This document shows, one piece after another, positions 1-61,026 of a DNA stretch of 64,000 bases. The first letter of the stretch is position 1. Every line of letters starts with the position of its first letter. This DNA comes from Moniliella sp. 'wahieum' (lineage: Eukaryota), in assembly GCA_003971905.1 (NCBI GenBank), contig RSEE01000123.1:1-64000 (forward strand), written 5' to 3'. Under the pieces are notes generated by a model. That model searched no databases. It was given only the letters and a program-made list of their open reading frames with translations, and was not told where the DNA came from. A program made the translations under genes and the position numbers.

Positions 1-1096
1 CCCTCCTCCCTCCTTCCCTCCTCTTTCGCCCCCCTCTTCCCCCCTCTGATCACATCCTACCTTGCCTCACCTCTGGCTGCATATCTTTCTTCTAATCTGC
101 AAAACGCCCCTGGCGAGCCACTGTATGCGTTCTATTCCCCTTTGCTCTGTGCGTACACAGCGTCGGTGGGCAATCGAGGCCAAGTAGCACGCCAACGCAG
201 GTCCCGCACCGGCCCACCAAAGGGGGGCTTGGCGTAAGGCACACTGGCCATACCGCAGCCAGGGTGTGGCACCGATGACAGCCACTCCATTGACGAGATA
301 GGTGGGAGACAATGGTCAGTGAGGTCAAGCTAGTCGAGGGCGGTTGCTTTCCATTGGCACTGAGACAGGGGTTCTTCGCCATGCGCTAGAATGATTCCTG
401 GTTGGTACTTGGTCCTACCACCCATAGCTGAGTGCTCAGACTGAGCGCCCAGGTGAACGTTCTGAGTACTGACCCCTGCAAGTGCAAGTTGTACTCGGGA
501 GCCTTGCGCCACCCGCATTGTACCCACTTGGTACGGCTGGTGCACACTTTTTCCAAGCGGCGCGCGAGGTGGACTGGCCCCCACCAACGTGCTAACTTGG
601 CTCGAACCTACCCTCTTCCCCTCCCCCCGCCACGGACCAAGCGCCGAACTTGGCCCCCACCCACAATCCAGTGCGGCGATCGACCAAGTCGAGCCCAGAT
701 CGGGGTCTCGGCCAGGTTTCTGGCTTCAATTCGTTGCGCCAGAGTTGGCCTTTCCTCACGTCTCACGTCTCACGTCTACAGCTGGGATCGAACCAAGTGT
801 TCTGCCCCCCCCCCCCCCCCGCCTCGCCTGCCCAACTCGCTTCATCGCTCATCCCACCTCGAGGGGTGCTACGGGTGCAATAGCATACTGCATATGCTGC
901 CGCGAAGCGATGGTGGCACACGAACCTAGGGTGTAGCCTTCCGCGCCCTATGGGCTTGATAATGTAATGATGGCAGACGCGCAGCATGGCAAGGAGCAAT
1001 ATGCACTGAGGAGCATGGATGCATTAGTTGGCGCGCTCGCGGTGCGCGCCGCTGGAGCAGTAGTAGGTACCAGGTAGGGCCAGGCGAACAACCGGA

Positions 1097-2355
1097 TCAA
1101 ATATGAACTTGGTGGCCCAGATCGGGCGTGGTCGGCTCGACAAACGCCGGTTCCAGCCGCGAGACCGAGACCCAGCCATGCATCAGCGCCCCTGTGCAAG
1201 GCGCAAGCGTCACAACGTCAGTCGGGCCACCCAGCACGCACACCGCGCCAAAGCAAAGCACAGCAAAGCAAAGGATAGGGGAAAGGGGACGAACAGATGT
1301 CTGTGCCAGGCTCCAAGTCGGGCGGGGCAAGCATGCCCTTCATATCGGGGCGGAAGAGCAATCGTCGTGCCGGTGGCGGCGCATCCGAGGGCTGGTACGG
1401 CGACGCTTGGGCGGGAGTAGGATCCGAGGCAGCCAAGTCGGAAAATCCACTGCCATGTCCTTGTCCTTGTCCCTGCGCCTGCGCCTGGACTGGGCAGGAG
1501 GCAGGGGCGCGCCCGGGTCGAGGTACAGACGCGCATGTTGTCCGACCCACATGCGGGTCCAGACCACCTTGGGTTCCAACACAGCCCATGCCACCGGCAC
1601 ATTTACCGAGTACGCACTTACGTTGGGTTCCCACGTGCGGTACAGGTGGTCACCACGTCGACCGAGACTTTGAGCGCGGCCTGGATTACCGCGTGCTGCG
1701 CCTGGGGCAGGTCGGTGGGCCGCTGTGGGCTGTCGGTGCTATCGGCCGGATCGGCCGGCTGGGGCGCAAGGCGGTCGTGGGCGTTTTGCAGGTGAGGCGG
1801 GGTGGTGGGCAGAGACTGGAAATGGGCAAAGGATAAGGCGATGGCCTTGGTGCCAGTCAAGGCTGCTGCCAGCGCCGCGCCGACCGTACCGCTTCCCAAG
1901 GCAAAGGATGTGCCTGTGTTGCGGCCAAAGTTGGGCCCGGTAACGACCAGGTCAAAGGGCGCGGGAGGCGGCGCGTCAGCATCAGCATCAGCTTCGGCAG
2001 ACAGGAGTGTGGCGTGGTTGTACACGCCCGCATTGGCGCACGACGCGGGCGATGCATCGAGCAACACCCACTCGCCCAGTTCGCCAGCGGCACGGTCAAT
2101 GGGCCGGCGGGTGGGCGACCAGCTGCCCGTGCCGGCGTCCCAGAGCGGCGCAGGCGTGCCCAGCTGCCGCGGGTAGTAGTACCACACGCCGACGGGGCTG
2201 TGGGCATGGAAGTGCATGCCGCCCCAGGACTTTTGCGCCGAGGGCAGCACCACCGCCACGTCCCATCCCTTGGCCACCAGCGCCTTCCACAGGCCCAGCA
2301 CGTAGGGCGATGTGGGCCCAGGCGGGCCATCGTCGCCAGTGATAAGCACGCGCAT
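1097..2355 (-). CDS. SurE-family 5'/3'-nucleotidase / acid phosphatase (frameshifted, one intron ~1192-1294)
   Basis: N-terminus MRVLITGDDGPPGPTSPYV...VVLPSAQKSWGG, central FDLVVTGPNFGRNTG...SGTVGAALAA...AIALSF, and after splicing the C-terminal GTDIWALMHGWVSVSRL, all typical SurE motifs. Confidence 0.85.
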
Positions 2356-2704
2356 CGGCTGGGTCGGTAAGCACGTCGAGTTGCACGTCGAGGTGCACGT
2401 CGAGTTGCTCTCAACGGTGATGGTGGCAGCCAGCCGGCACCGCGAGCCAGCACAGGCCACCCCCCTCCCAGATAGGGTTGCGTCAGCGCATGCATAGCCG
2501 ATAGCGCCACCGCGCCAGCCTGCCCCTCCATTGCACCACCGCCCCGCCCCGCCCCGCGCCTGCCCCAGCCACATCCAGCCACACCCGGTCGTTCCTGCCC
2601 ACCCTCCCGCCCGTCATCCGCATCCCACTTGGGTCCCCAGATACAGACATGGGTGCTGCCCCTGTCGATCCTCGTACATGCATCTCTCGGCCGCCCGCTC
2701 CAAA

Positions 2705-2800
2705 GGCAACGTGCCCGAGTGGTTAAGGGGATTGATTCGAACGCTTGTTTGCACCATCAATTAGGCTTTGCCTGCACAGGTTCGAGTCCTGTCGTTGTCG
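2705..2800 (+). tRNA. tRNA-Ser(CGA) with 14-nt intron (2742-2755)
   Basis: Acceptor GGCAACG/CGTTGTC, D arm CCCGAGTGGTTAAGGG, anticodon stem ATTGA/TCAAT with CGA at 2738-2740, long variable arm AGGC-TTT-GCCT, T arm ACAGG-TTCGAGT-CCTGT, discriminator G. Confidence 0.93.
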
Positions 2801-58900: not shown

Positions 58901-59573
58901 ACTGAGGTCGTGGATGTTGATCGGTTGGCGGGCGGGATGTGGTTGAAGATAACACAGAGCGGGATGGCGAGGCGAAAGACGCCCAGAGTTGGGACACGGG
59001 ATCGCGCACGTTGCCCACCCGCTCTCGACGCCGTCCATCTCGCTGGACTGTACGTCGCCGCCAAGAAAGGCAGGGCCAAAGCCATCGAGGCGCCACAGAC
59101 GGTCGAGCGTGGTGAGGCAGACCTGGTAGAGGGAAACGGCGCTGGGCGGCGGCTTGGGCGCCTGCGGACGGCCCGACGCATCCTTGATGAGATGGAGCCA
59201 ATGCCGCCGTCGGCATCGGTGGTGGCCGGCGGCGAGGGCATCGGGGTGGGGGGCAGGGGCGGGACGAGGCTGCCGGACACCGAGTGGAGCGGGTGCTGGC
59301 CAGGGTGCTGGTGTGGTGGGAGGGGAGAGGGAGCCGGTTAAGGAGCTGGAGGAGAGCGTGGCGGAGCCCGAGGAGAGCGGGTGGGTGCGGAAGCCGAGCA
59401 CGGCTGCGCCTGGGCGGCGCCCTGGGGGGTGGGGGGGCATTGGGGCTGGGGCTGGGGAGGGAGGCAAAGTGGGCGGGGGGAAGTAGGAGGGAGGGGCTGA
59501 GGGCGGTGGGGGAAGTGTCGAGGGCGGTGTTGGTGACCGACTGCTTGCGGCGGGGCAAGAAGGAGGCAGCCAT
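55963..59573 (-). CDS. CDC24: Cdc24/Scd1 Rho-family GEF (CH-DH-PH-PB1; intron ~58170-58255; frameshifts)
   Basis: SLYQVCLTTLDRL, DPVSQLW..FRLAIPLCVIFN, FSVSQLYVDDTNGFVKV (CH); VVKELLTSERNYVRDLETLQ, LFGNLDRVVDFQRRFLI, YLIKPVQRICYPL (DH); VEDWKGH...EREYRVYVFE...LKGRIFINN (PH); LKYVDEDGDLVAMNNDEDVSLAF (PB1). Confidence 0.95.
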
Positions 59574-60988
59574 GGTGGGGGCGGGGGAGACGCGCGCTCC
59601 GGATGGCGGGGAGCGGGCGGGGGGGGGCGGAGGACGAGGGGAGGGGGGGCAAGGCGAGGGAGATTGGTGGTGGCGGGAGCGGCGCGGCGAGGCGAGGTGC
59701 CTGGGCCGCGGCGGCGAGTGTGGGCTGGTGCGGGCGGGTGCGGGCGGGTGCAGGCAAGTGCGGGGGGTGGGGCACTGCATGTGCGCCGTGTGGAGCGGCG
59801 TGTGACGCATATCACACGGCGGGAGCCACAAGGGGGCACTAGGGTTGGGGGGGCCGCGGCGCACTGGCCCCGTGCAGGCGCGGTGGGGTGGGGGGGTGAG
59901 CTGGGAGTGGGGCGCGGCAGGCGGCTGGCGGCGGGCAGGGCGCGTGTGCGGGGGGGTGCGCTCAGCCTGGCCGGAGGGGAGCCACGCCGCAGCGGCAGGC
60001 GTGCTTCGTGGCCCGCATGCGGCAGGCACAGGCACTAGCACGCGCTGAGCTCACCCATGGGGCTCGTGGCGGTTCCCTCTGGGTGCGCTGGCAGCATTCA
60101 GGGGCATGGCTGATAGAGTCGCACCCAGGCCGAGGGCAGCCACGCCAGCGCCATCGGCCTTGTCTCGTCAGCTCCAGGCCAAGATGGGGCAAGCTGAGCC
60201 GGGGCGCACAACCCATGCCAGCCCGCCGCCCCACCCCTTTTCTCTGCCCCCTTTTCTGCCCTCGCGCCTCTGCGTGCCCCCGGCCTGCTCTCACCCAGCC
60301 ACCTGAATATCTGAATGCTCCCTGCGAACAAACTGCAATTGCAACTTTGGATGTGGATCTCGCCGGCCTGAAAGCTCAACTTGGCGCTGGCTGAATGCTG
60401 AATCTTAATCAGCACTCGTTACCCGCGTTGTACGTTCATCCGCGCCGGAGCACCCTCTCATCATCCCCGATCGGGCGTCTGCTCCCGAGCCTGGCGCCTC
60501 CGGTGGCTCCGGCGTGCTCGCTGCGTCGATCCAGTAGCAACATCGATGAGTAACCGAGTAGTGCGCCCCACTGGTCAACGCCCAGCGTTAGCTCAGCATC
60601 ACGCGCACCAGTACGCAGTGCAGACAGACGCTGCGCTTGCCACGGTCTGCACCGCTCACCGCTCACCCCACCCGCCCTGCGCGTACGTACAACTCCGGTC
60701 CGGCGCAGCCGCCTCGGCTCGCCACCCCCAAATTCCCATCTCGCTAAACACCGGACATGGGTAACCAGTAACTACTAAGCGCCTCTCTTGCTCACCTGAG
60801 GCCACCTCCCATGTCAGGTCACCTGCCCACCTCCCGCAATCACCCGCAGGACCTGGCTTGCGTAGATGCATCTGGTACCGCACCCATCGTTTTCTCCGAC
60901 AACCTCGTTTATCCTGCGCTTTGCTCCCGCCCCCTTCCTCCCGAGCTGGGAAACAAATTGGACACGCCAACTTGCTGGCTACCACACT

Positions 60989-61026
60989 TGAAGCTTGAAG
61001 CTTGAAGCTTGAAAGTTGATTATTGA
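60989..61026. repeat. TSA-N4 heptad array (TGAAGCT)3-TGAAAGT-TGATTAT-TGA
   Basis: TGA at 60989, 60996, 61003, 61010, 61017 and 61024. Confidence 0.9.

Follow-up and report, generated by a model that had tools for sequence, protein, structure and literature searches.

Flank-templated 7-nt insertions and period-7 arrays at TNA trinucleotides in the genome of Moniliella sp. 'wahieum'

The intergenic DNA of a 64,000-nt stretch of the Moniliella sp. 'wahieum' genome (contig RSEE01000123.1, here C123, positions 1 to 64,000; 'the window' denotes this whole stretch) carries many short arrays in which TCA or TGA (together TSA) recurs every 7 bp between 4-nt linkers. We found that most of these arrays obey a single rule, whereby a TNA trinucleotide acquires a 7-nt unit templated by its own flank, the minimal element being TNAxy + y'x' + TNAxy or its reverse complement (primes denote complementary bases). 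Comparison of duplicated regions of the assembly leaves little doubt that the units arise by flank-templated insertion, and arrays grow because each scar leaves new TNA targets in 7-bp phase. Tandem repeats would thus be built without slippage, by a break-and-repair scar that restores its own target. We consider it probable (roughly 0.65) that the elements are scars left at donor sites by a cut-and-paste transposon whose 7-bp target duplication is centred on TNA.

Period-7 arrays and the rule governing their linkers

The arrays were first pointed out in a prediction made from the letters of the window alone, and the stated sequence is present at all 17 positions cited there. Nineteen arrays in the window possess at least three TSA anchors at period 7; the pattern TSA-N4-TSA-N4-TSA has 29 matches, against 1.48 +/- 1.21 in 100 dinucleotide shuffles (maximum 6), and the lag-7 autocorrelation of TSA amounts to 123 for 37.7 expected. 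Across the whole eukaryotic assembly (GCA_003971905.1; 69.5 Mb in 223 contigs), five in-phase anchors are matched 2689 times and the reversed pattern 549 times; as CTAG arrays match the reversed pattern too, it is no independent control. Three of the cited sites (16950, 25296 and 29218) hold two anchors only, and at four others (756, CGTC; 19496, GTGG/GCGG; the CCAC part of 23557; 34772, GCTT) the linkers are non-palindromic and the rule is not obeyed.

The statistics below were obtained on 264 kb, consisting of the window and 200 kb of four contigs, or on the larger samples of 464 kb or 564 kb. When exact period-7 runs of at least 14 nt were masked (464 kb), the excess at lag 7 persisted (493, against 279-342 at the 12 other printed lags), whereas the excess sought at lag 14 did not (342 only). 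The 197 of these 493 cases with a palindromic linker constitute the entire excess, the 296 with non-palindromic linkers comparing with ~290 expected. As predicted, the lag-7 peak is not general to trinucleotides, but it is not confined to TSA either, since TAA and TTA show it too (ratio 5.7, versus 4.2 for TCA and TGA).

The linker between two TSA is palindromic in 225 of 447 cases (264 kb; chance ~7%), and no comparable excess of palindromic spacers exists at 2 nt (56/204, chance 26%), 6 nt (14/359) or 8 nt (5/214). Like anchors have palindromic linkers most often (TCA..TCA, 100/184; TGA..TGA, 98/172; TAA..TAA, 20/42; TTA..TTA, 17/31), mixed TCA/TGA pairs in 27/91, and linkers between the other anchors of the XNX' form (ANT, CNG and GNC) are palindromic at chance level. 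The preference is found in lone TSA pairs in which no linker is repeated (122/276 in 264 kb), as well as in lone same-N TNA-N4-TNA units without a prior repeat (206/404). The idea that one period-7 rule underlies repeats of unrelated appearance hence holds, with the anchor being TNA, bearing the same N on both sides, instead of TSA. Isolated TSA do not act as palindrome centres, their flank complementarity being at chance (0.245, 0.268).

All 16 palindromic linkers occur, and the linker follows the flank. In same-N lone pairs, the period-7 match extends most often by two bases in total (38/104), usually on one side. Twelve-mers made of five bases, two inverted flank-copied (P) bases and the same five bases again (hereafter 5+2) occur 617 times in 464 kb (Markov control, 42), and 375 of them begin with TNA. 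Lone informative joints comprise 42 right-type and 34 left-type cases at TNA, compared with 0-3 at ANT, CNG and GNC. Altogether, 348 joints in 464 kb obey the rule, 55 of them in the window; the genome-wide density of ~0.75 per kb extrapolates to 50,000 joints in the assembly. The linkers are therefore not interchangeable, contrary to what had been supposed: the flanking dinucleotide dictates the linker, N is copied, and non-palindromic linkers show no excess. Neither is there a lattice with free linkers, because the palindromic cases account for the lag-7 excess. The rule holds in 7/7 blocks of this assembly (48-59% palindromic), all three copies of the region described below included.

Gain of units between homeologous copies and growth of arrays

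The region of the window is present three times in the assembly, on C123, C51 and C131. The latter two can be aligned through intergenic DNA, with 4.2% substitutions over 99 kb, and C123 aligns with them mainly in genes (65-87%). That at least this region occurs in triplicate, with two copies ~4% apart and a third alignable mainly in genes, suggests a hybrid, polyploid or mixed sample. Further duplicated contig pairs in the assembly are C17/C62 and C127/C44.

Indels of 7 nt between C51 and C131 number 56, versus 39, 43, 12 and 22 of 5, 6, 8 and 9 nt, respectively. After 17 with unclean flanks were left out, 39 remained, 11 of which are exact 5+2 empty/filled pairs, nine at TNA and two at CCA/TGG (for example, TTATC became TTATC-GA-TTATC, and CGTGA became CGTGA-CG-CGTGA). 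Five were classed as 6+1, two of these also fitting 5+2; eight are tandem gains, seven of them inside arrays obeying the rule; and 15 were classed as 'other', several being one substitution off the rule. Between C17 and C62, four of six 7-nt indels are exact 5+2 events (three at TNA, one at TGG) and one more is a single mismatch away. At the end of a young element with terminal inverted repeats (TIRs), one 5+2 insertion is present in 2/13 copies and absent from the others, which polarises it as a gain. New scars thus appear at a rate of ~1 exact event per 380 substitutions (11 per 4190, C51/C131). These flank-templated 7-nt insertions between homeologs bear out the third option of the original prediction, the footprint of an unusual repeat-generating process.

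Two further features of the events were observed. CCA/TGG behaves as a secondary target, with three exact 5+2 polymorphic events (C51/C131 and C17/C62) and nine lone 12-mers for 1.3 expected. In addition, three of seven right-type de novo events (C131, positions 30670, 105351 and 119211) have, two bases beyond the duplicate, a transition that may stem from error-prone gap filling, although the numbers are small.

Ordinary slippage microsatellites or an assembly artefact provide the least credible account of the arrays, and slippage as the origin of the units is already refuted. De novo units contain two inverted bases, seen in the 7-nt indels as reverse complements and beyond the means of slippage, and palindromic linkers are frequent in lone units devoid of any prior repeat; plain slippage, already doubted in the original prediction, fits only the growth of existing arrays. 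There, whole-unit changes do occur (the eight tandem indels), and the four cited arrays with non-palindromic linkers are plain repeats. An artefact would be in keeping with the many one-base indels between C51 and C131 (806 in 99 kb) and with frameshifts in conserved genes of the window, at 23742-24190 (a presumed eIF1A-like gene), 7560-7753 (Vps1) and 25970-27547 (secreted protein). These frameshifts are probably assembly errors, though real decay of one copy is conceivable because young transposon copies agree at >99%. Arguing against an artefact, separately assembled homeologs have elements in common, 44 instances being identical, and the joints depend strongly on gene context.

Among 112 element instances in the C51/C131 alignment, in which those common to both contigs were counted twice, 36 face a gap in the other copy, 12 show small gaps, 20 differ by substitutions and the above 44 are identical; the elements turn over fast. 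The anchor T and the anchor A differ between homeologs at 3/128 and 5/128 positions, respectively, against a background of ~6%, a deficit that corresponds roughly to the halving expected from ascertainment and is still compatible with weak constraint.

Rule-obeying joints are most frequent on the promoter side of genes. Their density per kb is 1.48 in divergent, 0.86 in tandem and 0.36 in convergent intergenic regions (0.11 in short convergent gaps), as compared to 0.03 in coding DNA, in agreement with the predicted distinction between intergenic and coding sequence. The classes come from a rough self-trained coding hidden Markov model that misses genes, and the coding density is partly circular because arrays carry stops. 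The joints also cluster, 23% of the gaps between them being shorter than 100 bp for 6% expected. The promoter-side bias and the low divergence of anchor T and A, the latter close to the ascertainment effect, are the points in favour of a selected lattice on which a protein would bind cooperatively to TSA anchors spaced 7 bp apart, as had been proposed, or of a later co-option of scars as promoter signals. We regard this explanation as very improbable: non-palindromic linkers are at background after masking, N is copied, the flank sets the linker, units are gained as 7-nt insertions, and about a third of the element instances (36/112) are gapped in the other homeolog. A strong, promoter-enriched family of palindromic motifs can accordingly be purely mutational, which calls for caution; at the same time, promoters continually receive from the scars words resembling E-box, MCB and AP-1 sites, which selection could use.

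Within arrays, linkers were noted from the outset to change with the phase preserved. The rule explains this, since either flank of a TNA can serve as the template for a new unit. Indeed, both ends match their own flank in 9/11 arrays that switch linker (chance 1 in 256), as compared to 41/281 single units and 7/38 one-linker arrays. The window holds two arrays with such a switch, at 23058 and 40623.

The extent of the duplicate discloses the geometry of the event. In 564 kb, among duplicates that have two P nucleotides and extend two bases downstream, 0, 1, 2, 3, 4 or 5 upstream bases are included in 446, 37, 41, 0, 4 and 1 cases, where chance predicts 3.2, 0.8, 0.2, 0.06, 0.01 and 0 and other anchors yield at most 24, 5 and 7 (for 0, 1 and 2). 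TNA is exactly central in 26/56 joints that combine a 7-bp duplicate with two P bases. With both its ends two bases away from TNA, the duplicate bears the signature of a symmetric staggered cut of 7 nt, the unit being nnTNAnn.

Probable transposon excision and its alternatives

We propose that a dimeric enzyme would cut pq-TNA-xy with the 7-nt stagger seen in the joints, the site being duplicated upon insertion. At excision, both flanks may be sealed as hairpins at the exact border, as we infer because the xy|y'x' palindrome is even-centred; cutting at the exact element border gives an even-centred palindrome, in a RAG-like manner. A host nuclease would then open the hairpins two bases beyond the tip, the position preferred in hairpin opening (+2) by Artemis-type nucleases, leaving 4-nt 3' overhangs xyy'x' and q'p'pq. 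End joining would mostly retain one overhang, to yield the observed TNA-xyy'x'-TNA or TNA-q'p'pq-TNA with a net gain of 7 nt, and rarer joints would retain one or two extra flank bases. New hits, along with slippage once two units exist, would give rise to the observed arrays with a linker switch at the seed TNA. Hits would favour the promoter side of genes, probably in open chromatin, and frameshifting hits would be purged from coding DNA. By rough estimate, the observed rate of scars could be reached with a few dozen hopping copies. Such scars would map past sites of a vanished or low-copy element and would point to an element of the flank-hairpin kind whose 7-bp target, nnTNAnn, is unreported. 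In no fungus would a denser natural record exist of how hairpins are opened and ends joined, and the spectrum of joints can be measured.

Several observations weigh against this reading. No element was found between nnTNAnn duplicates in the ~0.86 Mb scanned, ~1% of the assembly, and both intact-ended TIR families that were found make 2-bp duplications. Loci resembling Transposase_21 on C17/C62, C34 and C127/C44 show no TIRs, and profile searches for hAT, MULE, Harbinger (DDE_Tnp_4) and Plavaka, which are of low sensitivity, were empty. TNA shows no enrichment of plain 7-bp duplications lacking P bases (5, versus 14-24 at other anchors), and a single locus accounts for the joints in which both overhangs are kept. 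At xy, AA, TA, GC and TT are rare, a bias that has no counterpart at pq (rho 0.08) and suggests a repair filter; no symmetric target preference beyond TNA is seen. The 7-nt alleles were read from the assembly sequence. Finally, the scars, among which one product dominates, are far more uniform than the Ac/Ds footprints described in PMC5873905, where 28 types occur among 128 footprints.

In favour of a transposon, CMC-type transposases are present in this genome, with Transposase_21 matches on C17, C34 and C127; the hunt for decayed transposases was based on single proteins and Pfam profiles. The first TIR family is represented by a 5.39-kb element (C131:111246-116634) without a Pfam match, whose CA..TG ends are shared by a 3.6-kb relative. 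Its near-identical paired copies number at least 12, as recognised among 30 TIR loci read, of 152 matches. Its motif 'KFHLQSHL..LWGP' is presumably transposase-like. This family was rejected as the agent, as most pairs have 2-bp duplications and no TNA target. The second, a 9.2-kb EnSpm-like element with CAC..GTG ends (C19:369073-378305; copies on C3, C16, C20 and C153, >99% identical), contains three TNA-palindrome joints within its own sequence; it was likewise rejected, 2/3 copies read at both ends having a 2-bp duplication and the third being mismatched. The C17/C62 pair of Transposase_21 genes are homeologs without TIR and with a ratio of non-synonymous to synonymous polymorphism (pN/pS) of 0.78-1.26, near 1, and for the single copy on C34 and the C127/C44 pair neither TIR nor 7-bp duplication was found. 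A match on C27 proved, on reading its translation, to be a glutamate synthase-like gene, and none of the large insertions between C51 and C131 has both TIR and a 7-bp duplication. The C34 locus (513259-516872, minus strand) is a single-copy EnSpm-like transposase gene in three long frames, which lies immediately downstream of a transporter-like gene and bears scar arrays in its upstream region. By its sequence it is a candidate domesticated or stranded transposase; a search found no longer homologs of its protein.

These loci bear on an alternative in which no transposon passes: nnTNAnn in open promoter DNA would be cut, with a stagger of 7 nt, by a DDE enzyme that is free, domesticated or devoid of TIRs, or else by some other host nuclease; after fill-in, one or both ends would form hairpins and be rejoined. 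Tens of thousands of scars with zero occupied sites in the DNA scanned, the great uniformity of the product, activity in all three subgenome-like copies and in young elements, and the existence of TIR-less EnSpm-like genes with long frames in ordinary gene contexts (C34:513-517 kb, C17:556-559 kb) all speak for it. We nevertheless hold it to be unlikely. The pN/pS of the C17/C62 pair indicates no purifying selection (assembly errors may inflate it), the scar rate is within reach of a few dozen hopping copies, as estimated above, and no enzyme is known to combine target cutting with fill-in and hairpinning when there is no donor. Were it true, the genome would harbour a self-renewing, promoter-focused germline mutator that creates palindromic tandem repeats de novo, with about one event per few hundred substitutions.

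A polymerase U-turn has a smaller chance still of being correct. Here, strand displacement of 4-5 nt at a nick beside T, copying of 2-3 nt from the displaced flap, realignment and ligation would leave a one-strand 7-nt loop. Such a process would account for the one-sided zero-loop palindrome and the scarcity of both-sided joints, and T at the return point would provide 1-nt microhomology, as c'=a in TNA. The symmetric 7-bp geometry weakens this account, which gives no reason for the duplicate to end precisely two bases to the left and right of TNA (41 cases with two upstream bases, none with three); ANT, CNG and GNC could use the same microhomology, yet none is enriched, and the CCA/TGG events lack it.

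As for known systems, flank hairpins, P nucleotides after excision and host end joining are established for hAT, Transib, RAG and the MULE Muta1 (PMC5499845, PMC5873905), and PMC5873905 describes P-nucleotide footprints after Ac/Ds excision in Candida, the P insertions being centred on the complement of the border base. As in joints of Ac/Ds, hAT, Transib, Muta1 and RAG, duplicated flanks are here joined via short inverted flank-copied bases, empty and filled alleles exist and host end joining would be involved. A direct target duplication lies on both sides of the joint (the 446/37/41/0 upstream-base series), and the inserted bases reverse-complement the flank next to them (11/39 indels; 9/11 switch arrays). 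Unlike in the Ac/Ds footprints, the scar palindrome is even-centred (xy|y'x') and lacks the odd centre of hAT. Other departures from known flank-hairpin footprints are the 7-bp unit with central TNA, the genome-wide density and the rebuilding of the target into tandem arrays. The scars thus work like a hairpin-type excision footprint and are candidate members of that class.

According to PMC12730594, CMCT elements (EnSpm, ESTA, Plavaka) make 2-5 bp duplications and share motifs with RAG/Transib, and hAT7 of rust fungi makes 7-bp duplications, which hence occur in basidiomycetes. CMCT-type elements are present in this genome, but the putative scar unit is 7 bp instead of the 2-5 bp given there, or the 2 bp of both families seen here; as to hAT7, the low-sensitivity hAT profile search gave no match here, and the scar palindrome lacks an odd centre. 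Excision by Tc1/mariner or by PIF/Harbinger elements, the latter targeting TWA/TNA, is either precise or leaves a short duplicated target with a few fixed element-end bases in between. The scars share with these the TNA-like target and the duplicate with few intervening bases, but the latter are flank-derived (all 16 palindromes) and the duplicate measures 5-7 bp, not 2-3.

Intergenic TAACTGA heptamer repeats in Beggiatoaceae are described in PMC4679880. Such bacterial repeats are similarly intergenic period-7 arrays with TGA/TCA, and bacteria and phages even possess arrays of TGACTAG and TGAAGCT, but the bacterial and viral loci use one fixed word family per genome, in contrast to the 16 linkers here. 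In 80 bacterial loci, lone TNA-N4-TNA pairs have another palindromic linker in 40/696 cases, at chance. Stop-rich period-7 arrays (TGAATCG, TGAATAG, TGAGGAC, TGACTGG, TGACTAG, TGAAGCT) were noticed in many bacterial genomes and phage contigs. The rule was not detected in other fungi, where 33/717 same-N pairs (4.6%) are palindromic in 47 loci of at least 4 kb, out of 80 around Vps1 relatives; by best match these are Malassezia-, Agaricomycete-, Tremellomycete- and ascomycete-like, without Ustilaginales or other Exobasidiomycetes. Five Malassezia-like loci give 5/23, too few and partly redundant to interpret. As regards the Ustilago maydis heptamers invoked in the original prediction, a primer given in PMC2219887 comprises two AATCGTG units; the linker being non-palindromic, these would be a different class from the TNA rule. 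ATTCACG arrays occur in viral contigs (12 loci, prokaryote-like gene layout), with non-palindromic linkers, and TGATGCA arrays were not found in viral contigs (0). We found no description of a genome-wide self-iterating scar of this kind in the open-access literature.

Sites in the window and host organism

The sites in the window are listed in Table 1. The source organism of the Moniliella sp. 'wahieum' assembly groups with Tilletiaria, a genus in Georgefischeriales, as judged from the Vps1 protein sequence: its best named match is Tilletiaria anomala (88% identity), to which the window protein is sister in a Vps1 tree (support 100/100).

Table 1. Arrays, single scars and the reference gene in the window
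Feature	Position	Strand	Remark
Vps1 dynamin gene	5784..7890	-	basis for placing the organism
(TCA.CGTC)3, period 7, non-palindromic	756..776	.	outside rule: slippage repeat or decayed, re-amplified scar
TCA.CATG.TCA unit	16948..16963	.	upstream of minus-strand gene 15872-16594
TGA.TCGA.TGA unit	19443..19452	.	upstream of BING4CT/WD40 gene (17411-19287, minus)
TCA.GTGG/GCGG array, non-palindromic	19496..19519	.	outside rule
Densest cluster, 15/55 window joints	22200..23600	.	upstream of gene at 23742
Joint keeping both 4-nt palindromes, TCA-agctagct-TCA	22209-22222	.	sole such joint; within AGCT array
(TCA.CGCG)2 TCA array	22524..22546	.	flanks match
Linker-switch array aa-TGA.TTAA.TGA.CTAG.TGA-ct	23056..23076	.	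both ends flank-matched; two scars, one seed TGA
TCA.CGCG.TCA unit in cluster	25367..25376	.	upstream of plus-strand gene at ~25970
Five single scars CGCG, CATG, CATG, CTAG, CGCG	29074..29335	.	29218 among them
TCA.CATG.TCA	32018..32027	.	one-mismatch CCTG unit before (32011)
(TGA.GCTT)2 TGA, non-palindromic in this phase	34772..34788	.	outside rule
(TGA.GGCC)2 TGA-gg	35089..35107	.	two iterated right-type scars
Linker-switch array ct-TGA.AGCT.TGA.CCGG.TGA-cc	40621..40641	.	upstream of Myb/Cef1 gene
(TCA.CTAG)4 array	40687..40717	.	decayed CCGG/GCGG units before (40666-40686)
(TCA.TGCA)2 TCA-tgca array	53344..53364	.	
tg-TGA.CATG.TGA.CATG.TCA	53824..53842	.	complementary middle base in last anchor
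TCA.GGCT.TCA.AGCT.TCA	55412..55428	.	one rule unit and one single-mismatch unit
ct-(TGA.AGCT)3 TGA	60987..61026	.	then two non-palindromic units

Three other features of the window were observed. A dispersed repeat of ~195 bp with ends resembling long terminal repeats (27851-28049) has at least 34 other copies at 85-88% identity. A tRNA-like sequence lies at 2709-2790, serine-type by eye, for which ARAGORN in bacterial mode made no call. Lastly, an intron of the acyl-CoA dehydrogenase gene contains a perfect (GAGGA)16 pentamer tract (3588-3667).

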